Shown: positions 30,601 to 56,667 of the stretch, piece by piece
Numbering within the stretch: the first letter of the stretch is position 1
Layout of the letters: each line of letters opens with the position of its first letter
NCBI GenBank assembly: GCA_014382245.1
Contig: JACNKC010000077.1
Span: forward strand, 7,395 to 71,394
DNA from: Pseudomonadota bacterium
GTDB taxonomy: Bacteria > Desulfobacterota > Binatia > UBA1149
Direction: 5' to 3'
DNA: 64,000 nt
Notes under the pieces: model-generated
Seen by the model: only the letters and a program-made list of their open reading frames with translations
Told to the model about the DNA's origin: nothing
The model's database searches: none
Program-made: the position numbers and the translations under genes

Positions 30601-30985
30601 TGACTGACTGGACTTCCCCCGGTTCTGTGGACAGAAGGATGGTATGCCCCGGGTTTCCCGGAGTCCGATTATTGGAATTTGGTGCTGCTCTCCATAGGAG
30701 GGCACCATGGGCAGACGGGGATATACATCGGAGTTTCGGCGTCCCGTACTCGAGTTGATCGGTACCGGGCGACCAGTGCGAGAGGTCGCCGGCGATCTCG
30801 GGATCAGCGAGCAGACGATCTACACGTGGAGGCGCCAGGATCGGATCGACCGGGGGTTGGAGCCGGGCCTGGCCTCGACCGAGCGTGCAGAATTGGTCGC
30901 CGCCCGAAAGCGTGTGCGCGAGTTGGAGACCGAGCTGGCAGTGCACCGACGCGCAGCCGAGTTGCTCAAGGAGAAGGCCCGCCCA
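30601..30985 (+). mobile_element. IS3-family insertion-sequence remnant (left end plus orfA only)
   Basis: A putative left inverted repeat TGACTGACTGGACTTCCCCC sits at 30601-30620, directly after tRNA-Leu. The 30707-30983 ORF encodes an IS3 OrfA-like HTH/leucine-zipper protein (MGRRGYTSEFRRPVLELIG...DLGISEQTIYTWRRQDRIDRG...RKRVRELETELAVHRRAAELLKEKA). There is no orfB and no right inverted repeat. Confidence 0.6.
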
Positions 30986-31621
30986 AAAGCAGGTACGCGG
31001 CAGCAGCCATACTCGGAGGCATTGTCAGGCGATCCGGCAGCTGATGGCTACGTGCTGCTGGTGGATCAGAAGGGCCCACGTATTGTAGCCGACAACATTG
31101 CACTCACCAACGAACTTCGAATTGATCCGACCGGGCAGTACCTCTACCTTGCTGAGTCGATGGCGAGCCGTATCCTGCGATTTCCGATTCTGGAAGATGG
31201 AGGCCTCGGTGAGAGAGAGATTGCCGGCCCGGATGTGTTCGGCCCGGCTGACTGGCCAGACGGTATCGCATTCGATGCCGAAGGTAACCTCTGGATTACA
31301 TTTTTTACCACCAATGAATTGAAGATATTAACGCCCGGGGGTGACGTACATACGGTTTTCAGTGACCGGCAGACTGAGGCCGTTGAACTCGTGGCCAGGG
31401 AATTCGCTGCGAGAGACATGTCCATCCCGGACGTGTTTGCCTGTGCCGGTCCACGCGTCGGACTGTGCGCCAGCGTAAATTTTGGTGGCCCGGACCTGCG
31501 AGATGTCTACATCGGTTCGCTGGCCATGGACCGGGTACTCACGTTTCGCTCACCCGTTCCCGGTCATCCCATGCCGCATTGGAATCGGTATATTAATATG
31601 GAGAAAACCCCGGTGGCGTAA
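30986..31621 (+). pseudogene. 5'-truncated SMP-30/gluconolactonase/LRE-like gene fragment
   Basis: The C-terminal SGL motifs DGIAFDAEGNLWIT and GGPDLRDVYIGS are present, but the N-terminal roughly one-third of the family is missing. It is read in-frame with the IS3 orfA fragment as a single 304-aa chimeric ORF (30707-31621). Confidence 0.55.
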
Positions 31622-37651: not shown

Positions 37652-37798
37652 TTTGATCGCCTGGCTGCAGAACCGTGAACTCGTGAAAGGGATTATAATC
37701 TTGGCGACAATCCTGCAAGAGCCCCCGTGACCGTCTGAACTGCAACAGGCGGAATGTAACAGATTGACGAAGTGTGTCCAATTTGTTAGATTCAGCAC

Positions 37799-38476
37799 GT
37801 GGACGGGAAACCAGGCTTCTTGAAGGAGAATCCCGCGGCGCCGGGAAATCGCTTGCTGCCGACCGAGGGCCAGCTGCGGACCGGCCCCTTCGCGCGCGGG
37901 ACCGTACGCGAGGCTACACGGGAACGTATTCTTGAGGGCGCCATGAAAGCAGTGTCCAGCCACGGACTCTCCAAGCTAGAAATGACCGATGTCAGCGCCA
38001 GCGCCGGGGTTTCCCGGGGCACGCTGTACCGATACTTCTCGAACCGGGAGGAGTTGCTTCACAGCCTCACTATTCGCGAAGCCCAGGACTTCTGGAAGCG
38101 CTGCGTGGAGGCGCTGGAGGCCTGCGAGAGGGATGACGAGCGCCTGAAGTTGCTGATGCTTCACGCCACCCGCTACGTCAGTGACCACGCCGCCCTGCAA
38201 CGCTTACTTGAGACCGACCCGGCCTTTGTCCTTTGCTCGCTCAGGCAGAGTTTTACCTCGGTGCGCGACGAGCTGGGGAGACTGCTCGCGCCGGCCCTGG
38301 AGAACAGCGGGCCGGTAAAAGCAGGCGTTGTTTCGGTGGACCAGCTGGTGGATTGGCTGACACGCATTCTCGTCACCACTTACCTCTTTCCGATCGAAGA
38401 CAGCGCTGCCATGGAGAGCGCCATGGAGTCCATGCACGGCCTGCTGGTCGGGCTGAGAGGATCTGATGAAGCGTGA
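37799..38476 (+). CDS. TetR/AcrR family transcriptional regulator (head of the oxidative cluster)
   Basis: HTH ...GLSKLEMTDVSASAGVSRGTLYRYFSNREEL. The start may be downstream of 37799. Confidence 0.78.
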   Translation: MDGKPGFLKENPAAPGNRLLPTEGQLRTGPFARGTVREATRERILEGAMKAVSSHGLSKLEMTDVSASAGVSRGTLYRYFSNREELLHSLTIREAQDFWKRCVEALEACERDDERLKLLMLHATRYVSDHAALQRLLETDPAFVLCSLRQSFTSVRDELGRLLAPALENSGPVKAGVVSVDQLVDWLTRILVTTYLFPIEDSAAMESAMESMHGLLVGLRGSDEA

Positions 38477-39419
38477 CTTTCCTTTTCCGCTGCCGAACGG
38501 TTGGTTCCAGGTAGCGTGGTCGGACGAACTTGCTCGCGGTGAGCTCAAGCGACTGAAGTACTTCGGGAAAGAACTCGTGCTTTACCGTGGCGAAAACGGC
38601 AACGCGCACGCGCTTGACGCCTACTGCCCCCATCTCGGTGCCGACCTTGGTTGCGGGGGCAGGGTCGTGGGCAACAACCTCCGCTGCCCATTCCACCACT
38701 GGGAATTCGACGGTGACGGAGCATGTGTCGAGATACCTTACGCGAACAGGATTCCACCGAAAGCGTCGCTGAAATCCTGGCTGGTAGTAGAGAAAAACGG
38801 CATGATATACGCCCACTACCACCAGCAGGGAGAGGCTCCCGTCTTTGACGTACCCGACCTGCCCGAGTTTGGTGATGAGCAGTGGACCCCGTTTATCAAG
38901 CGGGACTTCATCGTCCGTAGCCGCAACCAGGAGCTGGCCGAGAACACCTGCGACCCGGCTCACTTCAAGTACGTGCACGGCACCGCCGGGCTGCCTACCG
39001 CCGAAGCCGATTTCGATGGCCCACTGCTCAAGGTCAAGCTGGACTACCCCATAGAAACCCGGAGCGGTGAGAAGCACGGTGAGGTTTCGATCTGCAGCTG
39101 GGGCTACGGCATAGGCATCACGCGCTTCACCGGCATAGTAGAAACTACCGTGTTCGTCGGCGGCACCCCGGTGGACGACGAATACGTCCACAATCGCATG
39201 TCTTTCACCCTCAAGAAACTGGACAGCGACGAAGCGACGAAGGCTGTGGGTGAAGCTTTTGTCAACGAGATCTCGCGGCAGTTCACCGAGGACATCCCGA
39301 TCTGGGAAAACAAGATTTACCTTGACCGTCCACTACTCTGCGACGGCGACGGCCCGATAGCCGTCATGCGCAGGTGGGGGCAGCAATTCTATTCGCCGTC
39401 GCCCGGGAGCTCCACGTGA
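38466..39419 (+). CDS. Rieske [2Fe-2S] non-heme iron oxygenase, alpha-subunit-like (KshA/phthalate-dioxygenase-like), copy 1
   Basis: Rieske site CPHLGADLG...CPFHHW (CxH-x17-CxxH). Mononuclear iron motif DPAHFKYVHG (D-x2-H-x4-H). Length 317 aa. Overlaps the TetR 3' end by 11 nt. Confidence 0.83.
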   Translation: MKRDFPFPLPNGWFQVAWSDELARGELKRLKYFGKELVLYRGENGNAHALDAYCPHLGADLGCGGRVVGNNLRCPFHHWEFDGDGACVEIPYANRIPPKASLKSWLVVEKNGMIYAHYHQQGEAPVFDVPDLPEFGDEQWTPFIKRDFIVRSRNQELAENTCDPAHFKYVHGTAGLPTAEADFDGPLLKVKLDYPIETRSGEKHGEVSICSWGYGIGITRFTGIVETTVFVGGTPVDDEYVHNRMSFTLKKLDSDEATKAVGEAFVNEISRQFTEDIPIWENKIYLDRPLLCDGDGPIAVMRRWGQQFYSPSPGSST

Positions 39420-40411
39420 GCAATGAAGACCGATGTTCTTCCCGCGGGCGTGATTCCAACAGGTACCCTTTTCCGGCTTATCCCAACGGCTGGTTTCGCG
39501 TCGCCTATTCGGACGAACTTCGTGCGGGACAGGTCCTATCGCTGGAGCTGTTCGGCACGCGGCTGGTGGCCTTCAGGACCGTGCAAGGAACCCCGTTCGT
39601 GCTGGACGCTTATTGCCCGCACATGGGAGCCGACATGGGGGTGGGCGGTCGCGTAGACGGTGAGGCCCTGCGCTGTCCTTTCCACGACTGGCTGTGGAGT
39701 GGCGACGGCCGTTGCCTGGAGGTCCCTTACGCCAGTCGTATCCCGGCCAGGGCCATGACCAGGGCCTTCGAGGTTGTCGAGAAAAACGGCATACTCATGG
39801 CCTGGTGGCACTCTGAAGGCGAAGCGCCGCAGTGGCAGGTGCCCGACGTGGACGCGTTCTCCTCGTCCGGATGGCGCGAGCCCGTAGTAAAACACTGGAA
39901 AGTAAACGCCCGCTGGCTGGACATGAACGAAAACTGCGTTGACCAGGCCCACTTTCGCTACATACACGGCACCCTGGCTATTCCCGCCACCCAGGCCTCT
40001 CATGACGGTCACGTCTTCAGGGCGGAGTCTCACATTCGCCAGAAAGCCCCGGGGGGAGAAGCCGAGGGCTGCCTGGTCACCGTCGACCACGGACCCGGAT
40101 TCCAGGTCGTCACCCTCGCCGGGCTTATCGATACAGTGCTCTTGAACACCGCCACCCCCATGGACGAGGAAACCACCGACGTCAGCTTCATGTACACGGT
40201 GAAAACCGAGGGGCACCCGCGTAAGGAAAAACTGGCCGCCGCGGTCGTCGATGACCTCGTAACCCAGTTCCACAACGACCTGCCCATATGGGAAAACAAG
40301 TCATACTGGAGCCGGCCTATGCTCTGCGACGGTGATGGCCCCATAGGCGAATACCGGGACTGGATGAAGCAATTCTTTACAGAAGCGCCGGGAAAGGAAA
40401 AAACGCCATGA
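39416..40411 (+). CDS. Rieske [2Fe-2S] non-heme iron oxygenase, copy 2 (tandem paralog)
   Basis: The N-terminus NRYPFPAYPNGWFRVAYSDE parallels copy 1. Motifs CPHMGADMG...CPFHDW and DQAHFRYIHG. The start GTG 39416 overlaps the upstream TGA (GTGA). Confidence 0.83.
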   Translation: MSNEDRCSSRGRDSNRYPFPAYPNGWFRVAYSDELRAGQVLSLELFGTRLVAFRTVQGTPFVLDAYCPHMGADMGVGGRVDGEALRCPFHDWLWSGDGRCLEVPYASRIPARAMTRAFEVVEKNGILMAWWHSEGEAPQWQVPDVDAFSSSGWREPVVKHWKVNARWLDMNENCVDQAHFRYIHGTLAIPATQASHDGHVFRAESHIRQKAPGGEAEGCLVTVDHGPGFQVVTLAGLIDTVLLNTATPMDEETTDVSFMYTVKTEGHPRKEKLAAAVVDDLVTQFHNDLPIWENKSYWSRPMLCDGDGPIGEYRDWMKQFFTEAPGKEKTP

Positions 40412-41526
40412 AAGATTACAAGGTCATTGACTGTGACCAGCACGTCATCGAACCGCCCGAGCTCTGGGAAGAGTGGCTGCCGAAGGAATTCGCGGACCGG
40501 GCGCCGCGCCTGGTCAAGGACGAGGACGGCGGGGACGCGTGGTTGCTCGGCGAGCACAAGGAGGCGATCGGCTTGGTAGCGGCCAAGGGTGTTTCGCCCA
40601 AGGATCTCAAGTGGACCGGCACCCGCTACGCCGATTTGCACCCTGGCATATTTCGCTCGGCCGAACGGCTCGAACTGATGGACGAGGACGGCATTGACGC
40701 GGCGGTTTTCTTTCCCCCCCAACGCACGATGATCTACTTCATGACGCTGAAAGACGCCGAATTCCATCTAGCGGGCATGCGCGCGTATAATGATTTTATA
40801 AGCGACTGGGTATCGGTAGACCGGAGCAGGCTCGGGGCTATCTGGCAGATGCCGGCAACGGGTGCCGACGACGCGGCAGCCGAGCTACGCCGGGCTGCCG
40901 CTGCCGGGGCCGTGGGTGTGGGGCTGGCTTCCTGGCCCAGTGGTGAAATGGTTCTCTCTGCTGCCGACGATCCGTTCTGGGCTGTCGCCGACGAACTGAA
41001 GATGCCGGTGCACGTCCACATCGGCCTCACGCCGGCGAGGCAACCGGTAAAGCGCGTTGCCGCACGCAAAGGTGGGGCCGCGCAGCTCGTCCTGTTGGCA
41101 GGCACGATGTCACGTATGCCCTTGATAATCGCCGAGATGATATTCAACGAAGTATTCGACCGTTTCCCGGGCCTGGTCATGGTCGGTGGGGAAGTCGGAG
41201 CGGGCTGGGTTCCTTACCTTCTCAGTGAAATGGATGACCGTTACCGGCGTAACCGTTACTGGTGCGATGTAAACCTGGAACTGGAGCCGAGCGAATACTT
41301 CCAGCGTAACTGGAAGGTGGGTTTCCTGAGGGATCCCTACGGCGTGCGCAACTGTCGCGACGTTGGTGTTGAAAACATGATGTGGTGCAGTGACTTCCCC
41401 CACCACATCAACGACTGGCCCAACTCCGGCCAACTTATAGCTGAAATGAGCAAAGGCGTAGACGCGGATGACGCCAGGAAGTTATTCTGCGAAAATGCAG
41501 GTCGGCTCTACGGCTTTACCACCTAG
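40408..41526 (+). CDS. amidohydrolase-2 family protein (ACMSD/LigW-like metal-dependent hydrolase/decarboxylase)
   Basis: MKDYKVIDCDQHVIEPPELW at the N-terminus and ...WCSDFPHH... at the C-terminus are typical of PF04909. The ATG overlaps the upstream stop (ATGA). Confidence 0.8.
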   Translation: MKDYKVIDCDQHVIEPPELWEEWLPKEFADRAPRLVKDEDGGDAWLLGEHKEAIGLVAAKGVSPKDLKWTGTRYADLHPGIFRSAERLELMDEDGIDAAVFFPPQRTMIYFMTLKDAEFHLAGMRAYNDFISDWVSVDRSRLGAIWQMPATGADDAAAELRRAAAAGAVGVGLASWPSGEMVLSAADDPFWAVADELKMPVHVHIGLTPARQPVKRVAARKGGAAQLVLLAGTMSRMPLIIAEMIFNEVFDRFPGLVMVGGEVGAGWVPYLLSEMDDRYRRNRYWCDVNLELEPSEYFQRNWKVGFLRDPYGVRNCRDVGVENMMWCSDFPHHINDWPNSGQLIAEMSKGVDADDARKLFCENAGRLYGFTT

Positions 41527-41554: not shown

Positions 41555-42763
41555 ATGGCTGGAAATGATTTCGATCCTGGCGAGCTGAGTCTTTTCGACC
41601 CGCGTTTCATAAGCGACCCCCACCCGGTGTACCGAAAGGTTCGCGCGCAATGCCCGGTGGCGGTCGACCCCTTTGCAGGCAACCCCATGCTGACGCGACA
41701 CGAAGACATCGCCGATGCCCTGCGCACGCCCGGTGTCTACTCCTCGGGTATGGACGCCACTGCGCTGGGCAACCAGCGCCCGCTGATCCCGCTGCAGGTC
41801 GACCCCCCGTTGCACACCGAATACCGTAAGCTGCTCGACCCCCGTTTTTCGCGGGCGCGCGTGCGCGAACTCGAAGGAGACGTCCGTCAGCTCGCCGGCC
41901 GCTTGGTCAATGACTTTGTTGAAAACGGACGTTGCGAATTCAACAGCGAATTCGCGATCCCGTTTCCCTGCTCCGTGTTCCTCGGCCTCATGGGGCTGCC
42001 CTTGGAAGATCTCGACACCTTCCTGGCGCTGAAAAACGGTATTATCAGGCCGCCGGCTACGGACCAGCAAGACGCCGAGGCAGCGCGTGAAAGAGCAGCC
42101 AGGAAGATAGACGATTACTTCACCCGCGCGCTGGCCAGGAAGAAAAAGAACCCCGGCGAAGATCTCATGAGTTGGTTCCTTGGCGCTGAGATCGAGGGAC
42201 GCAAGCTCACCCACGACGAGGTACTCGGGATTTGTTTTCTTTTCCTGCTGGGCGGCCTCGACACTGTCACGGCAACCCTGGGTTGCTCGGTTGAGTGGTT
42301 GGCGCGTAACCCGGTGGATCGCGCAAGGTTGGTCGCCGACCCGTCGCTGCTACCCGGGGCTGTTGACGAGTTGTTGCGTTTTCACACGCCGGTGGTCGGC
42401 GTAGCCAGGGTCCTGCGGCGGGGGGTTACCCTGGGCGGTCACGAGTACGAAGCGGGACAACCCATCACCCTGTTGCTGGGCTCAGCTAACACAGACAGCG
42501 ACGCCTTCAAGGAAGGCGACAGCGTAAAATTTGACCGGGAGCCCAATCCCCACCTGGCCTTCGGTGCCGGACCCCACCGTTGCCTGGGCTCCCACCTGGC
42601 TCGAATGGAATTAAAAATAGCTCTCGAAGAACTGCACAAGCGTATTCCCTCCTACGCTATAGCCGACGGCGAGAAGGTTCGCTTCGGCTTGGCCATTCGC
42701 GAAGTAGAATGCCTCCCGTTGGTGTTTCCTCCCGGAATCCGAACCCAGGCCGATGCGTCCTAG
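41555..42763 (+). CDS. cytochrome P450
   Basis: Heme-thiolate loop FGAGPHRCLGSHLARMELKIAL. I-helix and ExxR are present. An AAGGA SD precedes ATG 41555. Length 402 aa. Confidence 0.9.
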   Translation: MAGNDFDPGELSLFDPRFISDPHPVYRKVRAQCPVAVDPFAGNPMLTRHEDIADALRTPGVYSSGMDATALGNQRPLIPLQVDPPLHTEYRKLLDPRFSRARVRELEGDVRQLAGRLVNDFVENGRCEFNSEFAIPFPCSVFLGLMGLPLEDLDTFLALKNGIIRPPATDQQDAEAARERAARKIDDYFTRALARKKKNPGEDLMSWFLGAEIEGRKLTHDEVLGICFLFLLGGLDTVTATLGCSVEWLARNPVDRARLVADPSLLPGAVDELLRFHTPVVGVARVLRRGVTLGGHEYEAGQPITLLLGSANTDSDAFKEGDSVKFDREPNPHLAFGAGPHRCLGSHLARMELKIALEELHKRIPSYAIADGEKVRFGLAIREVECLPLVFPPGIRTQADAS

Positions 42764-44028
42764 TGCGGCTGTTGCTGGACCAAACCCGTTGCGTGGGGCA
42801 CGGCCGCTGCTACGAACTCGCGTCCGGCCTGTTCGGCGAAGACGATCGCGGGCACTGCGTGTTGCTGGCGAGCGAGGCCGACTGCGATGACGAGGGGGCC
42901 AGGAAAGCGATCGCCAATTGCCCCGAGGGCGCTATATCCATGGCCCAGGATGGTCACGCTGAAGCAGACACCTGGGACCTCTTCTGCGATCGCCTCAAGG
43001 AAGCCGGAAAGGTCATCAGCGAGGCTCGCGCGCCCGGCGACGAGCTGACAAGGGCCGAAGGATATCGATACTTGTCCCGACTGACCCGGCTCGCGCTTGA
43101 AAAACACCTTGAGCACGCCGATCCGGCAGCGCCGACTTTCTACAGTCTCAGCCACGAAACGGCCAAGATCGGCTGCGATAACCCGGATAGTTTTTACCAG
43201 AATGCCGTACTCGATGGGCAATTCGAATACCGAGTCAGCGGCACGCGCGGCACGGCCGCCTACCTGGGCATAGGCGCTTATTATGGCAACTACGGCAGCG
43301 ACGCGCCGTCCGGCTGCAGCGGCTATCTCGAAGGAGCGCAACTGGAATTGGATGAGCAGGGCGGTTTCGAGCTTTTACTGGGTGGCGAGAAGAAGCCTGG
43401 CAACTGGATCGCCTTGCGCCCGGACAGCTCAATGCTCATCGTCAGGCAGGTGTTCCTGGATCGGGTCAACGAGGCCGCGGGCAATCTGGCCATTGAGCGA
43501 ACCGGCGGCAATTCACCGCGCATGCTGGACATAACCGCGTTGGAAGATGGATTGGATGCCGCCGCGGCTTTTGTTAAAGGCACCGCGGTGATGTTTGCCG
43601 AGTGGGCCGAGGAGTTCGAACGCTGCCCCGGGGAGCTCATCGCCATGGACAGTGCCCGTACCGCGGGTGCCCACGGGGATCCAAACATTTCGTTTTACAT
43701 GGGCGCGTGGCAACTGGAAGAGGGCGAAGCGCTGCTGGTCGAGCTAGTCGCACCGCCTTGCCTGTACTGGAACTTCCAGTTGAACAATCACTGGATGGAG
43801 TCGCTCGATTACCGTTGGCAGCGCATCCACGTCAACTCGCATGATGCAGTAGAAGACTCGGACGGGGTAGTCCGGATCGTGATCAGCCCGAGCGACCCCG
43901 GTTTGCCTAACTACCTGCACACCAGCGGCCACGGTCACGGAACCATGGGTTTAAGGTGCATCAAGGGGCGAGCTCCGTTCTCGATCCAGACGAAACGCTG
44001 CCGTATTTCCGAGCTCGGGGGTGTTTAA
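42763..44028 (+). CDS. ferredoxin (3Fe-4S/4Fe-4S type) fused in-frame to a DUF1254/DUF1214 domain protein
   Basis: GTG 42763 overlaps the P450 TAG (TAGTG). The first roughly 65 aa, VRLLLDQTRCVGHGRCYELASGLFGEDDRG...DCDDEGARKAIANCPEGAI, match the C-x5-C...CP P450-partner ferredoxins. No stop precedes the roughly 350-aa DUF1254 (DNPDSFYQNAVLD) and DUF1214 (GNWIALRP...LIVRQVF; GLPNYLHTSGHG) part. Confidence 0.65.
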   Translation: MRLLLDQTRCVGHGRCYELASGLFGEDDRGHCVLLASEADCDDEGARKAIANCPEGAISMAQDGHAEADTWDLFCDRLKEAGKVISEARAPGDELTRAEGYRYLSRLTRLALEKHLEHADPAAPTFYSLSHETAKIGCDNPDSFYQNAVLDGQFEYRVSGTRGTAAYLGIGAYYGNYGSDAPSGCSGYLEGAQLELDEQGGFELLLGGEKKPGNWIALRPDSSMLIVRQVFLDRVNEAAGNLAIERTGGNSPRMLDITALEDGLDAAAAFVKGTAVMFAEWAEEFERCPGELIAMDSARTAGAHGDPNISFYMGAWQLEEGEALLVELVAPPCLYWNFQLNNHWMESLDYRWQRIHVNSHDAVEDSDGVVRIVISPSDPGLPNYLHTSGHGHGTMGLRCIKGRAPFSIQTKRCRISELGGV

Positions 44029-44112: not shown

Positions 44113-45225
44113 TCAGTTCTCCTGCGAAAAACCCGTCCGTCCCTCACCGGGAGGCGCGAGGTCGAGAAGCCCGGCCAAAAGATTAGTGCAGGTATTATTC
44201 AGCTCGAAAGCGTAGCCAGCGGCTTCATCCATCAGCTCGTAGCGCACCAGTTGTTGAGAAATCCGCATCATGATCACCGAAAATCGAAAACCCGCAAACA
44301 CCTCCCAGTAGTGGAGGTCTCCCAGTTCTCTGCCCGCGCAGCGCTGGTAGTATTCAAGCGATTCTTCGTAGGAGCAGAAACCCTCGAGCCGCGGGGTAGA
44401 GATGCCCTCGCTGTGATGACGGTCCAGGAAGATACCCCAGGCCACGTCCTGCTCCGCGGTGCCGATGCAGGCCATCTCCCAGTCGAGTACGGCGGCGGGG
44501 CGACAATCGTCATCGAAAATAACGTTGCCGATACGGGCATCTCCCCAGGACACAACGGGGTGATCAACCGCTGGGGCGTTCTTTCGTAACCACTCACGGG
44601 CCACCTCCACTACTGGTTGCTCTCGGCCGCGCGAGGCCCAGTGAAAAAAATCATCGTAGTTGTCCAGCTGTGCCTGCAACACGTCCGATGAGCCAGCACC
44701 CGCGAGAAAATCGAAGCCCATGTTTTTCCAATCGAGACTGTGCACCCCGGCCATGCACTCAAAGCCCCCCAGCCATACCTGGTTGCGTTCTTTCGGCGAG
44801 AGTTCATGCAACCAGCCTTCGCTGTGGTAGGGCGGGTTATCACCAGGGACACGGCCTTTTACGTGTCGCATCACGTAAAACGGAGCGCCGAACACCGACT
44901 GGTCGTCGTTTTCGGTCCACAAGACCGACGGCACCGGCACCGGGCTATCGGCGAGCTTTTGCATACACAAATATTGCAGCGAGAGGTCGTAGTCCGGAAA
45001 CACAGTGAAGCCTTGTGGCTGAATGCGTACAACGCAGCTTTCACTCTGCCTGCCATCGTCCCAGGTGACATCGCAGAGCAGCGTGTCGTTCGAGAAGCCA
45101 GAAGAAGCGGGCGAAACGAGTTCACTCACTAACAGTTTTTGGGGGCGATCCAGCTTGCGATCCAGCCAGCCATAAAATTGCGCCCGGTCTCGGTCGAGAT
45201 CTCGCTGCCACATGGTCGGCATCGC
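44113..45225 (-). CDS. phosphotransferase family protein (APH/choline-kinase-like fold)
   Basis: Brenner/catalytic region ...VVSWGDARIGNVIFDDD...AVLDWEMACIGTAEQDVAW. The start is uncertain (ATG 45225 or 45216; ORF-track start 45276). Confidence 0.72.
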   Translation of the reverse strand, partial: AMPTMWQRDLDRDRAQFYGWLDRKLDRPQKLLVSELVSPASSGFSNDTLLCDVTWDDGRQSESCVVRIQPQGFTVFPDYDLSLQYLCMQKLADSPVPVPSVLWTENDDQSVFGAPFYVMRHVKGRVPGDNPPYHSEGWLHELSPKERNQVWLGGFECMAGVHSLDWKNMGFDFLAGAGSSDVLQAQLDNYDDFFHWASRGREQPVVEVAREWLRKNAPAVDHPVVSWGDARIGNVIFDDDCRPAAVLDWEMACIGTAEQDVAWGIFLDRHHSEGISTPRLEGFCSYEESLEYYQRCAGRELGDLHYWEVFAGFRFSVIMMRISQQLVRYELMDEAAGYAFELNNTCTNLLAGLLDLAPPGEGRTGFSQEN

Positions 45226-49410: not shown

Positions 49411-50160
49411 TCAGGTGAACAGGTCGTCTTCGGGCGGCCGAAGGAGCTCAATGGCACTGCCGGCACCCAGTTCGGCGCCGCTACCTCGCACCAGTACGGC
49501 CGGCACTCCAGCATCCTTTTTCATGGCAATACCGGCTGCGGCAGCCAGCTGGTCGGCGACCGCGAGGGATGTGTGCTCGAGGGTTCTTCCCGTCCAGTCA
49601 CGGCCGCCCTCCCTGTTGTCGACGGGCAACAAGCCCGCGCAGCCTATGGCCAGGTCGATCTGCCCCAATCTCCAGGCGCGGCCGAAGGTATCCGAAATGA
49701 TCACGCCGACCTGCGCTTCGTAGTGGACAGCAAGCCGCGACATCAGTCGGAGCGCCGACTTGTCCGAATCTTCGGGCAGGAGGGTAGCGTCGCCCTCGAC
49801 GGCCTGGTTTGAGCAGTCAACGCCCGAGTTGGCGGCAACAAAGCCGGGACCGGTGCGAGTGATGAGATGCCCGTCCTTCTTGCGCAGGATTTGGCTCGCT
49901 TCGAGTAGCGCCAGCTCTACGACGGCCGGGTCCTTATCGTGCGCATTGGCAAACTCAAGGGCCTCGTCCGAGGGCTCGACCTCGGACAGCTTGCGTACCC
50001 TTCCTTCGGCCCGTGACACGACCTTCTGGCATACGACCAGGACGTCGCCGGATTTTACGCCGACCTTCTGCTTGTCGATAGCATCGATGAGCAAGGCGGC
50101 GAGATCGTTCCCAGGCAGGACCATGGGGACGCCTTCGATGGGTATCAACATGGTTACCAT
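49411..50160 (-). CDS. cofE: coenzyme F420-0:L-glutamate ligase
   Basis: 249 aa. ...GVKSGDVLVVCQKVVSRAEGR..., ...VAANSGVDCSN... and ...IISDTFGRAWRLGQIDLAIGCAGL match the F420_ligase family (PF01996). Confidence 0.8.
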   Translation of the reverse strand: MVTMLIPIEGVPMVLPGNDLAALLIDAIDKQKVGVKSGDVLVVCQKVVSRAEGRVRKLSEVEPSDEALEFANAHDKDPAVVELALLEASQILRKKDGHLITRTGPGFVAANSGVDCSNQAVEGDATLLPEDSDKSALRLMSRLAVHYEAQVGVIISDTFGRAWRLGQIDLAIGCAGLLPVDNREGGRDWTGRTLEHTSLAVADQLAAAAGIAMKKDAGVPAVLVRGSGAELGAGSAIELLRPPEDDLFT

Positions 50161-50161
50161 T

Positions 50162-51130
50162 TCAGCGTTCCGTCCCGCCGAGCGGTATCTTCAAGAGAAA
50201 CCGCGCGAGTGCCAGCGAACGCCGCTTACTATTCAGCAGGGTGTTGCGCTCAAGCAGGCGGGGCCAGGTGGCTTCAGGCCGCCGTGGTGCGTCCCCGGGC
50301 GAAACGACCAGCGACGTCGCGAGGCCCTCGTAAAAGTCTGCTATGCCAGCGCTTCCTCGACCCGCACCAAGGCTTTTCATCATAGCGACCAAGGGGCCCT
50401 TCACCGCCCGACCATTGACCAGTGGACTGACCGCAATGGTCTTGCGGCACACGGCCCCCAGCGCTGCGCGTAGACCCGGAATCGCAAGCATGGGCGCAAT
50501 GCTTACGTAGGGGTTGCTGGGAGCGATTATTACCTTGTCGGCCGATGCCAGGGCCTCGCTGACCCCGGGCGCCATGCTGGCCCCGGACGCGCCCTTGTAA
50601 GTGATGCCGTCCACCCTCGGGCGGGCGCCTTGCTTGACGAACCACTCCTGGAAGGCAAAACGGCGTCTACCCGACCTGAGCACGGTACGCACCGGGTCGT
50701 TGCTCATGGGCAATACCGAGGTCCGAATACCCAGTTGTGTGCAGATTCGCCGGGTAGCCTGGGCAAGAGAGGAGCCCTCTCTCAACAAGTGGCTACGGTA
50801 AATGTGAAGGGCGAGGTCCTGGTCGCCAAGCGAGAACCATTGGTCACCGAAATAACGACCCAGCCAGGGCAGGGCGTTCCGGGTATCGCCGCGTATACCC
50901 CAGCCCCTCTTGATCGGGGCAAGCCCGGCCAGTGTGTACGCCACCGTGTCGAGGTCCGGAGATACCTGCAGTCCATAAAAACTCTCGTCGTCTCCCGTGT
51001 TGACGATCACGGTCAACCTGCGGGGATCAACGACTTCAGCGAGTCCCCTAAGGAGTCGGCAGGCTCCCACTCCACCCGCCAGCAGGGTGATTCGTGGGTT
51101 GGCCGGCAAGGCGTCCATCATCGCTTTCAT
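50162..51130 (-). CDS. cofD: 2-phospho-L-lactate transferase (LPPG:FO transferase)
   Basis: ...ITLLAGGVGACRLLRGL...VIVNTGDD... matches the CofD/UPF0052 N-terminal motif. The annotated start overlaps the cofH 3' end by about 80 nt; the real start is unresolved. Confidence 0.78.
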   Translation of the reverse strand: MKAMMDALPANPRITLLAGGVGACRLLRGLAEVVDPRRLTVIVNTGDDESFYGLQVSPDLDTVAYTLAGLAPIKRGWGIRGDTRNALPWLGRYFGDQWFSLGDQDLALHIYRSHLLREGSSLAQATRRICTQLGIRTSVLPMSNDPVRTVLRSGRRRFAFQEWFVKQGARPRVDGITYKGASGASMAPGVSEALASADKVIIAPSNPYVSIAPMLAIPGLRAALGAVCRKTIAVSPLVNGRAVKGPLVAMMKSLGAGRGSAGIADFYEGLATSLVVSPGDAPRRPEATWPRLLERNTLLNSKRRSLALARFLLKIPLGGTER

Positions 51131-52304
51131 CCAACAGCTCGTACAGGGTGTTCCGTTGCCGGGGTTCTCTACCCCGCGACATGATCATGCTCCTGAGTTC
51201 ATCGGCCGAAGTGTACTCTCCTGAATCCGCACCCGCTTCGCGCGAGATGCTCTCTTCCATCAGGGTGCCGCCAACATCATTGCAACCCGCGTCGAGACTC
51301 AGGGTTGCCAACTCGCGACCGAGCTTGACCCAGGAACTCTGCAGGTTATCAACCAGCCCGTCCAGCATCAGTCGGCTGGTTGCGTACACGGCTATGTCGA
51401 GACGCCCCTGTGGCACCGGGGATACCAGGCCCTCGGCGTAAAGCTGGGTGTTCTGCCAGATAAAACGCAAGGGTACGAACTCGCTGAGTCCACCGGTGTT
51501 GCGCTGGATGCCGCGCAGTACCTCGATGTGTTCGGCCATGTGCCGCGGTGTTTCCAAGTGGCCGTAGAGCATGGTGGAGGTCGTAGGCAAACCCACCTCG
51601 TGGGCGGTGGTCACGATCTCTATCCAGCTGTCGGTGTCGAGCTTGTCGTGGGTAAGGACCTTGCGGATCTCCGGGTCAAAAATTTCCGCGGCGGTACCGG
51701 GCATGGTATTCAACCCCGCTTCGAGGAGTAGCTCGAGATACGGCCGGTAGGCCAGGTTCATTCGATGGGCGCCGTACTGGATCTCCATCGGCGAAAACGC
51801 GTGAATATGAAGGTCGGGGTAGGCCCCGCGCACCGCTCGGAGCAGTTGCAGGTAGCCGTCGTCGGGCATAACCGGGTTGAGTCCACCCTGCATGCATACC
51901 TCGGTAGCTCCCAGCGCCACGCCCTCGCCGATACGGTGGAGAACGTCAGAGACATCGCGGTCGTAAGCCCGGGGACTGTTCTTGAGGTGGGCGAAGGAGC
52001 AGAACTTGCAGCCCACGAAACAAACGTTAGTCCAGTTCACGTTGCGGTTGATGACATAGGTCACCGTATCGCCTACCGCGCGCCGCCTCAGCTCGTCGGC
52101 GACTCCCACGAGGGCGGCCAGCGAATCGCCTTGCAAAGCAAACAGCTCGCTAGCCTCGTCTACGGTCGGCGCTCGGCCGGCCAGCGAACGCTCGAGGATG
52201 GCCGCCAGGCCGGGCGGAGTGGCCGCCAGGCGGTTTTCGAGATCCCGCTGGTCCGCAAAGAGGTACTCGACTCTCTCGGGTGACTGTTCGGTCTGGTAAC
52301 TCAC
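51048..52304 (-). CDS. cofH: FO synthase subunit 2 (7,8-didemethyl-8-hydroxy-5-deazariboflavin synthase), radical SAM
   Basis: CFVGCKFC radical-SAM cluster motif and the CofH-type C-terminal domain. It is a gene separate from cofG. Confidence 0.83.
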   Translation of the reverse strand: MSYQTEQSPERVEYLFADQRDLENRLAATPPGLAAILERSLAGRAPTVDEASELFALQGDSLAALVGVADELRRRAVGDTVTYVINRNVNWTNVCFVGCKFCSFAHLKNSPRAYDRDVSDVLHRIGEGVALGATEVCMQGGLNPVMPDDGYLQLLRAVRGAYPDLHIHAFSPMEIQYGAHRMNLAYRPYLELLLEAGLNTMPGTAAEIFDPEIRKVLTHDKLDTDSWIEIVTTAHEVGLPTTSTMLYGHLETPRHMAEHIEVLRGIQRNTGGLSEFVPLRFIWQNTQLYAEGLVSPVPQGRLDIAVYATSRLMLDGLVDNLQSSWVKLGRELATLSLDAGCNDVGGTLMEESISREAGADSGEYTSADELRSMIMSRGREPRQRNTLYELLDESDDGRLAGQPTNHPAGGWSGSLPTP

Positions 52305-53515
52305 AGGGTTGCACCCCCCTGGGCCGTGATCGCCGCGGGCAGCTCCGCAAAGCGTTCAACCGCCAATCGCATGTCAGGATCCAGGAACTCGTCGTTCACG
52401 TACTCAGGATAAACCGGCAAGCGGGGCTCGAGTTCGAAACCCAGCCCGGAACAGGTCTGCGCCAGGTCTTCTAGATGAGGCCAGGGGTCGCCGGGGTTAA
52501 CGTAGTCCGCGGTCACCGGAGAGATGCCACCCCAATCGTTTATACCGGCATTAACCAGGCGCGCGTGCCCCTGGGGGCTGAGGTTGGGCGGTGCCTGGAT
52601 GTTCATAGCTGGTCCCAGGATCAGGCGGGCGATCGCCACGCAGCGTATGAACTCGTCTTCTGTCGGTTCCGGAAATCCGCTCATCGGCGTGGAGTCCTTG
52701 TGCCTGAAGTTCTGTATGATGACTTCCTGCAGGTGACCGTACTGCTCGTGTAATCGGCGCAATTCGAGGAGGCTCGCGATTCTTTCAGCCTCGGTTTCAC
52801 CAATGCCCACGAGGATGCCGCTGGTGAAGGGTATCCGGAGCTCGCCCGCGTCGGCGATCATGCTGACCCTTGCCGCCGGATCCTTGTCGGGCGCAAACTG
52901 GTGAGGCATTCCTCGTGCGCGCAAACGGGGGCTGACATTCTCGAGCATCAAGCCGAAGCTCACGTTCAGCGGTCGCAGGTTGCGCATCTCATCGTGCGAG
53001 AGCAGCCCCGCGTTGGTGTGCGGCAGCAGATCTGCTTCGAGGGCCAGCGAGCAGGCAAGGCCCACGTACTCGGCCGTGCTCGCGGCTCCCCATCGTTCGA
53101 GCTCGGCACTGAACCCGCGAAAAGCGATCTCGGGTTTGTCGCCAAGGCACATGAGGGCTTCTATGCAGCCGGCTGCTTTACCCCGTTCAGACCACTGGCG
53201 GATCTCGTCAGGGGTCATGGTCCATTCGCCTGCCTCGCCGGGATCCCGGCGAAAGGTGCAGTACGTACACCTGTCCCGGCATAGATTGGTCACAGGGAGA
53301 AAGACCTTCGGGGACCAGGTGAGCACTCGGTCCCGATCGCGGTCGCGCTGCCGGCAGGCCAGCTCACAGATTTCTGCGGTCAGGGACCACTCGCGGTCGC
53401 CGTCAGCACTCCCGCGGGGACTGCCAGCGTGCAGAAGGGCATAAGCATCGTCGTCGCCCAGGCGCTCAAAAGCGCGGGCCCTGGCGAGCGCCCTGTCTAG
53501 AGGATTACCGACCAT
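52301..53515 (-). CDS. cofG: FO synthase subunit 1, radical SAM
   Basis: Motifs ...VFLPVTNLCRDRCTYCTF... The start overlaps the cofH start region by 4 nt. Confidence 0.83.
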   Translation of the reverse strand: MVGNPLDRALARARAFERLGDDDAYALLHAGSPRGSADGDREWSLTAEICELACRQRDRDRDRVLTWSPKVFLPVTNLCRDRCTYCTFRRDPGEAGEWTMTPDEIRQWSERGKAAGCIEALMCLGDKPEIAFRGFSAELERWGAASTAEYVGLACSLALEADLLPHTNAGLLSHDEMRNLRPLNVSFGLMLENVSPRLRARGMPHQFAPDKDPAARVSMIADAGELRIPFTSGILVGIGETEAERIASLLELRRLHEQYGHLQEVIIQNFRHKDSTPMSGFPEPTEDEFIRCVAIARLILGPAMNIQAPPNLSPQGHARLVNAGINDWGGISPVTADYVNPGDPWPHLEDLAQTCSGLGFELEPRLPVYPEYVNDEFLDPDMRLAVERFAELPAAITAQGGATL

Positions 53516-53588: not shown

Positions 53589-54983
53589 CTACTGCGCGTC
53601 GGGCTGCTCTATGCCGAGCTTGTCCATGCGGTATTTCAGAATCCGCCTGGTCGTGCCCAGGGTCCGCGCGGCCCGGGTCTGGTTGTGCCGGGCCCGGCTG
53701 AGGGCCTCTTCGATGATGTCCTTTTCAAACTCGTCCACGGCGAGGTTGAGGCTCTTGCGTCCATCGAGCACCATCTGCCGCGTGCCCGGTCCCGCAGTAG
53801 AGGGCCCCGCCGCCATGTCAGGCGGTAGGCTGTTGACCCCGATCTCATCGCAGTCCGGCGCCAGTACCAGGGTTCTCTCGATCACGTTCTCCAGTTCGCG
53901 CACGTTGCCCGGCCAGGGATAGCCGAGCAGCTGCTCCACTGTCTCCTGGCCCAGCGTCCTCGAAGGCAGACCGTGCTCCCTGGTTTTCTTTTCGACGAAG
54001 TGGCGAATCAGCAGCGGAATGTCTTCAGGCCTGTCGCGCAGGGGAGGGAGGGTCACCGTGACCACGTTCAACCGGTAGTACAGGTCTGCCCTGAACGCGC
54101 CTTCATCAATCAGCTTGCGCAGGTCCCTGTGGGTGGCAGCCACCACGCGCACGTCCACTTGCAAGGGGCCCGAGCCGCCCACCCGCATGATCTCGCCTTC
54201 TTCGAGCACCCTCAGCAACTTGGCTTGCAAGGACGGGCTCATCTCTCCTATTTCGTCAAGGAACAGGGTGCCCTTGTCAGCGATTTCGAACTGGCCGGTC
54301 TTTTTTGCCGACGCGTCGGTGAACGAACCTTTTTCGTGACCGAACAGTTCGCTCTCGAGCAGGTTGTCGGGAATCACCGCGCAATTAATAATGACCAGGG
54401 TCTCACTGGCCCTCGGGCTGTTGTAGTGAATAGCCTTGGCGATGAGTTCTTTGCCGGTGCCTGACTCGCCGCTGATGAGCACCGTGGTTTTGAGCGGGGC
54501 CACTCGACCCACGGTATTGAAGACGTCCTGCATAAGGGAGGATTCGCCGATCATGTTGTCCACGGAGTAGTGAGAACCAACTTCACTGCGGAGTTGGTCA
54601 ACCTCGCGAAGCAGGGCGGCATTTTTGATTGCACGCGAGGCGACCATGCGCAGCTCGTCGACATCGAAGGGCTTGGTGATGTAGTCAAAGGCTCCCAGTT
54701 TCATGGCCTTCACTGCCGTGCGCACCGTCTTGGTGGCCGTCAACATGACTACTGGTAGGGCAGCATCACCCTCGCGGATGTGCTCGAGCACTTCGAGCCC
54801 ATCGATACCCGGCATGAGTATGTCGAGAAAGGCGAGGTCGGGACTGTTGTCCTTCAACCACTCGATGGCGTCTTCGCCACAGGGCTGGGTCACCGTCTCC
54901 CAATCGTCCTTGAGTACCATGCGCACCGATTCGCGCACGCCAGCCTCGTCATCAACTATCAGAACTACCGGTTTGCCTGTCAT
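53589..54983 (-). CDS. sigma-54-dependent Fis-family response regulator (NtrC-type)
   Basis: Receiver domain VLIVDDEAGVRESV...D. AAA+ sigma-54 activator domain with GESGTGKE, GAFTDA-type and LYYRLNVVTVTLPPLRDR motifs. C-terminal Fis HTH. Length 464 aa. Confidence 0.9.
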   Translation of the reverse strand: MTGKPVVLIVDDEAGVRESVRMVLKDDWETVTQPCGEDAIEWLKDNSPDLAFLDILMPGIDGLEVLEHIREGDAALPVVMLTATKTVRTAVKAMKLGAFDYITKPFDVDELRMVASRAIKNAALLREVDQLRSEVGSHYSVDNMIGESSLMQDVFNTVGRVAPLKTTVLISGESGTGKELIAKAIHYNSPRASETLVIINCAVIPDNLLESELFGHEKGSFTDASAKKTGQFEIADKGTLFLDEIGEMSPSLQAKLLRVLEEGEIMRVGGSGPLQVDVRVVAATHRDLRKLIDEGAFRADLYYRLNVVTVTLPPLRDRPEDIPLLIRHFVEKKTREHGLPSRTLGQETVEQLLGYPWPGNVRELENVIERTLVLAPDCDEIGVNSLPPDMAAGPSTAGPGTRQMVLDGRKSLNLAVDEFEKDIIEEALSRARHNQTRAARTLGTTRRILKYRMDKLGIEQPDAQ

Positions 54984-56667
54984 CTACCTCATCCTCCACC
55001 GCCCTTGGCAGTTTCCACGTCAGTCTCGATCCATCCTTGGTATTGGTCACACCGAGGTCACCCCTGTTACGCCTGCTCAGTTCACGGGCCAGCGCCAGTC
55101 GCCATGAAGCCGGCGGCCCACCTCCCGAAGTCATGCCAGCCAGGGCCGCGAGTTGCCCTGAACTACCCGGCACGTCGACCACCATCGCTCCGTCTTCGCT
55201 TACGGTCACCATCGCCGCGGACCCGCGTGGCAGGGTTTCAACAACGGCGTCCACCATGCAGTCGATCGCAAAACAAAGCTGTTGCAGGTCGGCTTCTACG
55301 CGCCACCCCCGCGGCAGATCAATGTGTACCGCTGCGCGGGCCTCATCGCCCCGGTCGATGAGCGCGTGCTCAAACAACTCAGCCACGTCGGCCGTTATCG
55401 GGTCGGGAAGCGAGAACCCCTCGTACTCGACAAGCGTGTCAACGATGCCGCTCAAGCGATCGCAGGCCCCCCTGGCCAGGCGCGCGAGCTCGTTGTCTTC
55501 AGGCGCAATAGAACTGAAGGTTTTCAGTGTCGTCAGCGGATTTCGCAGGTCATGGGCCAGGTGAGCAAGCAGCTGTTCCAGGGGGAGAGGCTCGCCAATA
55601 TCCTCACCGCCATCGCTCTCCGCAACAACGCGGGCCGGAGCGGGAATCGACTGCAAGGTCGGACGGGTCACGCGCTCGACTCCGAACACGATGTCTTCGG
55701 CCTCCAGCTCACGACGCCCGCCGGGTTCGCAGAGCAACAACGCACGACTCCTGCGCAGCACGACTTCGAGCTCGGTAGTGTTGCCCGGCCAGGCGTAAGC
55801 CTGCAGGCGTTCGGCAGCCGAAGCAGCAAGGCAGAACGGAGAGCTGCCGGAGTTCTCGAAAGCGGCGAGCATTGCCCGCGCTAGCTCCGGGATGCAGAAG
55901 GCCTGTTCCCTGAGTGGAGGCAGCAGGGCCGTGAGGCCAGCCACCCTGTAGTACAGTGCCCTTACGAGTCGGCCGTCGGTAGCGAGGCTCTCGGGGCCTT
56001 CGGCCATGCCGGCGACCACGCTGCAACCTGAAACCGCCAGCAGAACCGCCAGTTGTTCTTGCTCGGCGTGGCTGCGCAGCTCGATATCTGGAAGGTAAAC
56101 CACACCCCGCTCGCAAGCAGCTATGAGGCCGGCCGCATCCGCAGCAGCCGTGACGACGATGAACTCGCTGTCGGGGCCTCGCAAAGCAGCCAACGCCGCG
56201 GCCACGTTTTCTTTTCCAACACCTGGCTCACCCACCAGCACGAGCGGGACCTGGCCGGCCGCGGCTTGCTTGAGGACGGGTTCGGCGTGGGCCGGAATCC
56301 AGGGAAAAGTGAGCCACGCGGCTGGCAATGCTTCTTCGCCTACACGGCCACCCGAGCAAAGCCTGGCCACGGCCGCGCTCAACTCAAAGAGGGCAAAAGG
56401 GTGCGGCAGCACTTCCCGACCGGGGCCTTCCAGCGAGCCGCCCCGGGCTGCGCTATCAACCAGGAGCAGCGACGGCGCCGAGCTGCCGATTTCGACAGCG
56501 GCAGAGTCACAGCAATTGACCACCACGGCGTCGGCCTTCGCCAAAGCGGCGGGATCGGCTGATCTGCTCAAGGTCCAGCCCTCGGGCAATACTTCCTCCA
56601 CGGCAACCACGAAACGCCCAAGAGAGTCCAGGAGCAGCAGCTCAGGCATGGATGAGGCCCTCGGCAT
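54952..56667 (-). CDS. atypical regulatory protein: degenerate sigma-54-activator-like AAA domain fused to a histidine-kinase-like module
   Basis: Walker A GEPGVGKE, ...LYYRVAGLTALLPPLRE... and ...YAWPGNTTELEVV... resemble EBP central domains, but the GAFTGA region is deleted. The C-terminus has a HisKA H-box (LAHLAHDLRNPLTT) and a degenerate HATPase_c. The start may be ATG 56649 (an 8-nt overlap with the upstream gene). Confidence 0.55.
   Translation of the reverse strand: MPRASSMPELLLLDSLGRFVVAVEEVLPEGWTLSRSADPAALAKADAVVVNCCDSAAVEIGSSAPSLLLVDSAARGGSLEGPGREVLPHPFALFELSAAVARLCSGGRVGEEALPAAWLTFPWIPAHAEPVLKQAAAGQVPLVLVGEPGVGKENVAAALAALRGPDSEFIVVTAAADAAGLIAACERGVVYLPDIELRSHAEQEQLAVLLAVSGCSVVAGMAEGPESLATDGRLVRALYYRVAGLTALLPPLREQAFCIPELARAMLAAFENSGSSPFCLAASAAERLQAYAWPGNTTELEVVLRRSRALLLCEPGGRRELEAEDIVFGVERVTRPTLQSIPAPARVVAESDGGEDIGEPLPLEQLLAHLAHDLRNPLTTLKTFSSIAPEDNELARLARGACDRLSGIVDTLVEYEGFSLPDPITADVAELFEHALIDRGDEARAAVHIDLPRGWRVEADLQQLCFAIDCMVDAVVETLPRGSAAMVTVSEDGAMVVDVPGSSGQLAALAGMTSGGGPPASWRLALARELSRRNRGDLGVTNTKDGSRLTWKLPRAVEDEVDDRQTGSSDS

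Follow-up and report, generated by a model that had tools for sequence, protein, structure and literature searches.

The 64,000-nucleotide (nt) stretch of contig JACNKC010000077.1 analyzed here (hereafter the window), from an uncultured bacterium of the Binatia, carries a gene fusion at the end of an oxygenase operon. Immediately downstream of a cytochrome P450 (P450) gene lies an open reading frame (ORF) in which a small ferredoxin domain runs directly into a large domain of the DUF1214 type. The fusion is real, conserved and lineage-restricted, and it is built from known parts. The P450 gene ends with a TAG at 42761-42763, the G of which is the first base of the fusion's GTG, giving TAGTG. 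Ferredoxin and P450 thus occupy separate reading frames and belong to separate polypeptides, the redox domain and the haem domain not being in one chain. The longest version of the ORF in a mechanical list, starting at TTG 42580 and spanning 482 amino acids (aa), was rejected as it would overlap the P450 gene by 184 nt. The N-terminus conserved in the window and in two related loci (L002 and L168; M-R/K-L/V-L/V-L-D) starts at the GTG; in its longer form among relatives it reads M-R/K-L/V-L/V-L-D-x-x-R-C-V-G-H-G-R-C. The corresponding NCBI record, MBC8293160.1 (418 aa, annotated "ferredoxin"), begins at a TTG three codons after the GTG, and the ferredoxin domain is included with either start. 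No clear Shine-Dalgarno sequence was found ahead of GTG 42763.

Pfam matches to aa 5-60 exceed the cut-offs for both Fer4_15 (38.4 bits, cut-off 22.4) and Fer4_13 (31.3 bits, cut-off 24.5), and the cluster motif, C10-V-G-H13-G-R-C16 ... C53-P54, has a histidine at its variable position. In an alignment of 22 ferredoxin sequences (those of the window, L002 and L168, and 19 free-standing homologues) the motif positions are invariant throughout; the window sequence keeps 14 of the 14 invariant columns with almost no gaps. Most free ferredoxins end at or near the equivalents of aa 61-66, the tail of L168 extending further. The best matches in the PDB are FdxE of M. tuberculosis (8AMQ, an FdxE-CYP143 construct) and the ferredoxin of R. 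palustris HaA2 (4ID8), both of them P450 partners with a CxxHxxC motif. Ferredoxins of the CXX?XXC(X)nCP type are encoded beside CYP genes, have been isolated with [3Fe-4S] clusters and support the associated P450s (Child et al., PMC6237146). By sequence criteria, the domain belongs to this CxxHxxC [3Fe-4S] class of P450 partners, except that it is not free-standing. In a six-frame regular-expression scan of the window, no other ferredoxin motif fell in a family-supported ORF.

The reading frame passes from the ferredoxin into the 350-aa body without a stop codon. One and the same 421-aa protein (P0122) was found on 15 contigs, and the five loci read (L163-L167) represent five different samples, with DNA 99.7-100% identical to the window over 10-17 kb. 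Two of the five are strain variants with 35-43 single-nucleotide polymorphisms (SNPs); a single SNP falls within the fusion gene (C to T, gene position 639) and leaves the protein unchanged. A divergent relative from a Logan assembly, L002, shows the same ferredoxin-body architecture with a body 74-76% identical. Read from a GTG overlapping the stop codon of the P450 (GTGA), its frame is uninterrupted for 415 aa in total; it encodes MKVVLDRNRCVGHGRCYE...NCPEGALS and continues straight into the body. One might still argue, from the fact that only one database protein cluster is called as a fusion, that two separate genes were joined artificially, through a sequencing or assembly error that deleted a stop codon or introduced a frameshift between them. 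We reject this explanation, whose probability we regard as vanishingly small: the protein is identical on the 15 contigs, the five samples include two strain variants and one protein-neutral SNP, the strongly diverged L002 has the same open junction, and the NCBI record comes from an independent metagenome-assembled genome (MAG). A preliminary description of this DNA, which had read a frame from GTG 42763 to 44028 overlapping the P450 TAG, a C-x5-C...CP ferredoxin at its N-terminus, a stop-free continuation into a body of roughly 350 aa and, in consequence, a natural fusion, is borne out on all these points; the false fusion through sequencing error that it had considered is refuted at the assembly level by L163-L167 and L002.

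Comparison of the window with L002 also speaks to the age of the fusion. Synonymous sites are saturated (proportion of synonymous differences, pS, 0.76-0.89). The proportion of nonsynonymous differences (pN) is 0.118 in the P450, 0.155 in the body, 0.235 in the ferredoxin and 0.42 in the 12-codon linker, which is the most divergent stretch. The ferredoxin-linker-body junction is gapless and stop-free. Because pN is low relative to saturated pS (for the ferredoxin, pS 0.89 and pN/pS ~0.26) and the junction is gapless, the codon comparison indicates that the ferredoxin domain is under purifying selection and that the in-frame junction survived a long divergence. These data make it very improbable that the ferredoxin region is a decaying relic translated as a leader while the P450 uses some other ferredoxin. 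Such decay would fit the lack of a ferredoxin reductase nearby and the failure to model the domain with confidence (from a shallow alignment, though), but it is hard to reconcile with a pN/pS of this order, with the integrity of all cluster ligands and of every invariant position, with a Pfam score above cut-off, or with the domain's standing as the sole ferredoxin motif of the 64 kb in a family-supported ORF.

It is also worth considering that one ORF might yield two products, the DUF1214 protein arising by internal initiation near M61 and the full-length fusion serving to supply the ferredoxin. A GAGGG occurs 10 nt upstream of ATG 42943 (M61), the CPEGA codons holding Shine-Dalgarno-like GAGG/GGAGG sequences; in L002, the TTG that the gene caller picked as start has a GGAGG 5 nt ahead of it; and the body is free-standing in a sister lineage (see below), where it starts only a few residues downstream. 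However, the internal starts are not conserved: the window ATG corresponds to GTT in L002 and the L002 TTG to ATA in the window. As the candidate starts are thus not homologous, a conserved separate body product is unlikely. Moreover, the Shine-Dalgarno-like bases are a necessary consequence of the conserved CPEGA residues and, without a stop codon, a fusion protein must exist anyway. Overall, the two-product scheme strikes us as distinctly unlikely. A homology between M61 and the start codon of the sister lineage was rejected, the DNA alignment placing the sister ATG opposite the codon for H66 of the window protein. The automatic gene call in L002 (P0003, 1601-2677) begins at the internal TTG, preceded by the GGAGG that the conserved CPEGA codons encode, and cuts off the ferredoxin domain. 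Start mis-calls of this kind could lead protein databases to under-report similar fusions.

The assignment of the body is less straightforward. PF06742 (DUF1214) matches the window protein at aa 332-398 with 20.9 bits (E 5e-4), below the 25-bit cut-off; PF06863 (DUF1254) gives no match with its hidden Markov model (HMM), and NCBIfam has no model for the protein. When 66 homologues of the body were scanned at E<=1, DUF1214 was detected in 62 (best E 4.9e-11) and DUF1254 in 15, all below threshold (best E 0.0032); precomputed PF06742 hits exist on most body homologues. A profile of the body family matches PDB entry 6ANS, an uncharacterized protein of Burkholderia cenocepacia, with an E value of 5.7e-144, and the body matches this structure over its full length with the same fold, a double beta-sandwich. 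The 2,317 homologues scored are typically 357-390 aa long and cover ~85% of the query, namely its C-terminal part. The family is very strongly conserved: conservation begins at W71, and the dozens of invariant residues include C75, C333, H131, H304, H390, D139, D142, D306, D349, N140, N308 and E346, with many Cys, His and Asp residues among them. The preliminary description had proposed a body made of DUF1254 plus DUF1214. Of this pair, DUF1214 stands, the profile matches making the assignment look secure for the family as a whole (62/66 members and 6ANS) although the window protein's own score is sub-cut-off; DUF1254 is not confirmed by HMM, and any likeness to it would be no more than a distant structural one. 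The clade with the fusion, together with its sister group (compared over aa 71-421), forms a long branch and deviates at nearly invariant family positions, such as LRCIKG for the family's LRWVKA and RQVFLD for RQNFLD, which accounts for the sub-threshold score. Literature searches on DUF1214 and 6ANS turned up no functional account, and no redox function is known among the similar PDB structures; the fold therefore gives no redox lead.

The genes and features of the operon are collected in the following table. A promoter-like site is present at 37764-37792, ahead of the TetR gene; in a scan for promoters and terminators the site counts were the same as in shuffled sequence, with no enrichment at this place. 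One P450 and two Rieske oxygenases encoded in the window need electrons, yet a tblastn search with the reductase of locus L031 found no ferredoxin reductase homologue within the 64 kb.

Features of the oxygenase operon and of the fusion gene (window coordinates)
Feature	Position	Strand	Basis or remark
TetR-family regulator, operon gene 1	37820..38476	+	Pfam TetR_N in the gene table of L163 (identical to window)
KshA-like Rieske oxygenase 1	38466..39419	+	Pfam Rieske 81 bits, KshA_C 123 bits
KshA-like Rieske oxygenase 2	39416..40411	+	Pfam Rieske 68 bits, KshA_C 130 bits; start codon per L163 gene call
Amidohydro_2 family protein	40408..41526	+	Pfam PF04909, 97.6 bits
Cytochrome P450, 402 aa	41555..42763	+	Pfam p450 77.8 bits; ATG 41555 read in the sequence, same as L163 gene call
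Fusion ORF, 421 aa: ferredoxin domain, short linker, DUF1214-type body	42763..44028	+	GTG 42763 to TAA 44026-44028
Ferredoxin domain, aa 1-61, [3Fe-4S]-type motif CxxHxxC...CP	42763..42945	+	Fer4_15 38.4 bits
Cluster-binding motif C10, H13, C16 ... C53-P54	42790..42924	+	Regular-expression scan, six frames
Junction, aa 62-70, AQDGHAEAD	42946..42972	+	Ferredoxin C-terminal tail meets variable N-terminal tail of body
Tryptic peptide spanning the ferredoxin-body junction			AIANCPEGAISMAQDGHAEADTWDLFCDR
6ANS-like DUF1214 body, aa 71-421	42973..44025	+	Two N-terminal helices, beta-sandwich, long helix, second beta-sandwich
APH-family phosphotransferase, convergent, marks operon end	44113..45222	-	Pfam APH 81.7 bits; L163 gene call

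The evolutionary context suggests how the two parts came together. The body has its closest relatives, at 86-88% identity, in MAGs labelled UBP10 or Candidatus Binatia (L001, L003, L004 and L083-L085). These sister loci are syntenic with the window, sharing the genes for hydantoinase A/B, TetR, Amidohydro_2, DUF1214, APH, a T4-deiodinase-like protein and BioB. They are without both KshA-like Rieske genes, the P450 and its ferredoxin, and PhyH; the DUF1214 gene is kept in place. Remnants of PhyH, 40 aa long, were noticed in the sister lineage between the APH gene and the T4-deiodinase-like gene. The picture looks like a stepwise loss of oxygenase genes from one operon. A neighbor-joining tree gives the topology (L002,(window, sister group)), on a long branch, which makes it most parsimonious that the fusion is ancestral to this clade and that the sister group has lost it along with the P450.

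Elsewhere the same ferredoxin stands alone. In 5/5 loci read (L168, L170, L171, L172 and L173), a free ferredoxin of 63-84 aa, 57-63% identical to the fused domain, directly follows an orthologous P450 (identity 52-56% in L168 and L170-L172, the four for which it was compared). This agrees with the P450-partner type assigned to the ferredoxin in the preliminary description, and indicates that P450 and ferredoxin form a conserved cassette, the last product of which is ordinarily a free ferredoxin of this size; DUF1214, too, is ordinarily a separate protein. No DUF1214 gene occurs near these orthologous cassettes. One of them, L171 (1-3692), is a distant syntenic locus with the arrangement hydantoinase B (minus strand), then TetR-Rieske(KshA_C)-P450-ferredoxin, the ferredoxin being free and 63 aa long, and no DUF1214; identities to the window are 66% for HydB, 53% for TetR, 57% for the Rieske protein, 56% for the P450 and 57% for the ferredoxin. 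From this synteny, the TetR-Rieske-P450-ferredoxin module is older than the fusion.

To place the fusion within the body family, we considered 160 further family loci from genome and metagenome collections, mostly MAGs of Binatia, Myxococcota and "Deltaproteobacteria", with some Gammaproteobacteria, Bacteroidota and Chloroflexota. An HMM trained on 128 ferredoxin homologues, of which 124 have the motif histidine, found a ferredoxin within 6 kb in 0/160 of these loci, and a tblastn search with the ferredoxin over the fetched family loci gave a match in L002 only. When every body ORF was extended upstream, no ferredoxin motif appeared outside the window species and L002; long open frames upstream of body genes were rejected as ferredoxins, being GC-rich noise without ferredoxin motifs. 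A P450 gene lies within 6 kb in 10/160 loci (11/162 counting L002) and directly adjoins the body gene only in L030 and L117. We suspect that this rate is close to background in such P450-rich genomes, this being our own estimate, made without a control. A phmmer search with aa 1-105 (ferredoxin, linker and body start) against 1.84 billion representative proteins returned 533 hits, and none of the best 150 spans ferredoxin and body; nearly all of these 150 are free ferredoxins of ~60-135 aa, the rest comprising a few N-terminal fragments of the body and longer outliers. The window's fusion is itself not a cluster representative in that collection, so that other fusions could be hidden there. 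A word-indexed search with the same residues yielded short ferredoxins only and did not recover the self-match P0001; it is uninformative on fusions and was used solely to choose ferredoxin homologues for the context look-ups. The fusion is thus confined to one small clade of uncultured marine bacteria, comprising the window species and L002. For the survey of recurrence suggested in the preliminary description, the 160 loci thus gave no further ferredoxin-DUF1214 fusion, and a P450 directly beside a DUF1214 gene in L030 and L117 only.

Neighbors of a different kind characterize the family as a whole: sulfotransferases, SDR, LLM (luciferase-like) and acyl-CoA enzymes, rather than redox carriers, are usually found beside its genes. 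The most frequent immediate neighbor of 6ANS-like DUF1214 genes is Sulfotransfer_3 (PF13469), in 45/162 loci, among them L005 (7094-8332), L007 and L008; 29 of the 45 have it directly downstream, on the same strand and within 150 nt. The DUF1214 copy of the window has no such neighbor. This adjacency may be a better functional clue to the DUF1214 family than the ferredoxin fusion. In the window, an F420 biosynthesis cluster is found at 49411-53515 (minus strand), with F420_ligase/CofE, CofD, CofH and a further radical-SAM gene; it fits the many luciferase-like, possibly F420-dependent, oxidoreductases that accompany family members elsewhere.

The narrow distribution bears on the view that this is a "Rosetta-stone" fusion, in which the body works physically with the P450 system and the fusion reports the body's true function. 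The body might bind or deliver a hydrophobic substrate, process the product of the P450, or receive electrons from the ferredoxin. Purifying selection on the fusion in two lineages without a conserved internal start, the tightly packed operon shared with three oxygenases, and the long branch of the fusion clade can all be cited in its favor, as can the high conservation of the body, whose many invariant polar, Cys and His residues suggest an active or binding site. Against it stand the counts just given for ferredoxin (0/160) and P450 (10/160), the usual company of the family's genes, the lack of a DUF1214 gene near the orthologous P450-ferredoxin cassettes, and the sister lineage, which dropped P450 and ferredoxin while the DUF1214 gene stayed in place. 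All considered, we find this view conceivable but unlikely. The redox-linked role for the DUF1214 family that the preliminary description drew from the fusion is not supported: the fusion is restricted to a clade, no ferredoxin was found within 6 kb in the 160 other family loci and a P450 in only 10 of them, the sister lineage keeps DUF1214 alone and the fold offers no redox lead. The distribution argues that the family as a whole is not redox-linked.

The reading that we prefer, and to which we would assign a probability of about 60%, is that the dedicated ferredoxin of the P450 became tethered to the DUF1214 protein through loss of a stop codon, the body being a pathway partner or a passenger rather than an electron acceptor. 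In this scheme, the P450 encoded just upstream would have its dedicated [3Fe-4S]-type ferredoxin in aa 1-61, and the TAGTG overlap probably couples translation of this domain to termination at the P450 stop (termination-reinitiation). Electrons would flow from a ferredoxin reductase to the ferredoxin and from there to the P450; with no reductase in the 64 kb, this enzyme would be encoded elsewhere. Possibly, the fused ferredoxin also serves the two KshA-like Rieske oxygenases of the operon. Most likely, the DUF1214 gene already sat between the Amidohydro_2 and APH genes in this lineage, the P450-ferredoxin cassette and DUF1214 then became neighbors, and the intervening stop codon was subsequently lost. 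The linker would accordingly represent the C-terminal tail of the ferredoxin running straight into the variable N-terminal tail of the body. The fusion has been kept under purifying selection ever since, in at least two species-level lineages. Since no stop codon intervenes, the ferredoxin can be made only as a fusion. As to the body, it would most likely be a co-expressed pathway partner or a tolerated passenger.

While the anatomy of the gene, the conservation and narrow distribution of the fusion, and the class of the ferredoxin with its P450 adjacency are directly established, the direction of electron flow, the translational coupling, the origin through stop-codon loss and the non-redox nature of the body are inferred, and several observations weigh against the tethering scheme. 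The electron chain is incomplete as seen, there being no reductase in the window. AlphaFold2, which modelled the body with confidence, gave the ferredoxin domain a predicted local distance difference test score of only 30-45, as the alignment had no depth there, and thus provided no usable model of this domain or of the packing of the two domains. The invariant Cys, His and Asp residues of the body may form a metal or redox site. The long branch and the departures from family consensus could mean that the body changed function after the fusion, and the long retention of the fusion could mean that the tether is useful rather than neutral. Together, the retention and the long branch leave room for a functional association specific to this lineage. 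In its strongest form, the tether would be functional and the 6ANS-like DUF1214 domain would have been recruited as a physical component of the P450/Rieske system of this Binatia clade, where it could act as a substrate-binding or delivery module or as a second ferredoxin-dependent catalytic site; we consider this rather unlikely.

Should the tether prove functional, it would offer the first experimentally tractable clue to a widespread family with more than 2,300 homologues and a solved structure (6ANS). A general redox role for DUF1214 proteins is unsupported, and the fusion says little about the family at large. Independently of function, the locus provides a natural case of a P450 ferredoxin under purifying selection while fused to a partner other than a P450, which is of some interest for the engineering of P450 redox chains. 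It also calls for a correction of annotation, the GenBank entry reading only "ferredoxin" and the gene call in L002 losing the ferredoxin domain.

Two further features of the window deserve mention. A 304-aa ORF at 30707-31621 (plus strand) combines the transposase helix-turn-helix HTH_Tnp_1 (aa 2-78) with an SMP-30/gluconolactonase-like SGL region (aa 114-215); it may be a chimera produced by insertion, or else a gene interrupted by an insertion sequence. At 54952-58930 (minus strand), three frames follow one another: first a GAF-HisKA-HATPase sensor kinase, next an unusual ORF of 571 aa and last a canonical sigma-54 response regulator; the 571-aa ORF combines the AAA+ region of a sigma-54 activator with a HisKA domain.

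The fused domain can be compared with the CYP-associated CxxHxxC(x)nCP ferredoxins, represented by Fdx (Rv0763c) and FdxE (Rv1786) of M. tuberculosis, Fdx1, Fdx5, Fdx8 and Fdx10 of M. marinum, and 4ID8 of R. palustris HaA2. It resembles them in its Fer4_15/Fer4_13 matches, in the motif with its histidine, in being an acidic domain of ~60 aa and in the position of its gene next to a P450 gene, an arrangement seen in the window, L002, L168, L170, L171, L172 and L173. Unlike these ferredoxins, which are free and 61-70 aa long, its C-terminus continues into an unrelated 350-aa domain; the product, at 421 aa and with no stop after the domain, falls outside the ~60-100 aa of small free-standing ferredoxins. 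The hosts differ as well, the known ones being actinobacteria and an alphaproteobacterium, the present one an uncultured Binatia/UBP10-like bacterium.

Compared with the 6ANS family, whose structural-genomics representative and more than 2,300 DUF1214-annotated homologues (~365 aa) contain no ferredoxin domain, the window clade is a long-branch variant just under the Pfam cut-off for DUF1214. The Vibrio parahaemolyticus proteins VPA0735 (2P3Y) and VPA0106 (3U07), the reference DUF1254+DUF1214 structures, show only 9-14% identity, and the DUF1254 HMM has no match in the window protein; an N-terminal PF06863 domain of the 2P3Y type is not found in it.

A further parallel for the architecture lies in the natural fusions of P450s with redox partners, such as the CYP51-ferredoxin of Methylococcus capsulatus and the CYP116B/P450RhF class. 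In these, as at the present locus, a P450 ferredoxin is covalently linked to another product of its own gene cluster. In these fusions, however, the ferredoxin is carried by the P450 itself, whereas in the window the P450 is separate and the partner is a domain of unknown function. The Fer4_15-DUF1214 architecture appears to be undescribed, GenBank labelling the protein only as ferredoxin. An engineered FdxE-CYP143 fusion has also been made and its structure solved (8AMQ; PMC9868604). Taken together, P450 redox-partner fusions indicate that tethering is compatible with ferredoxin function.

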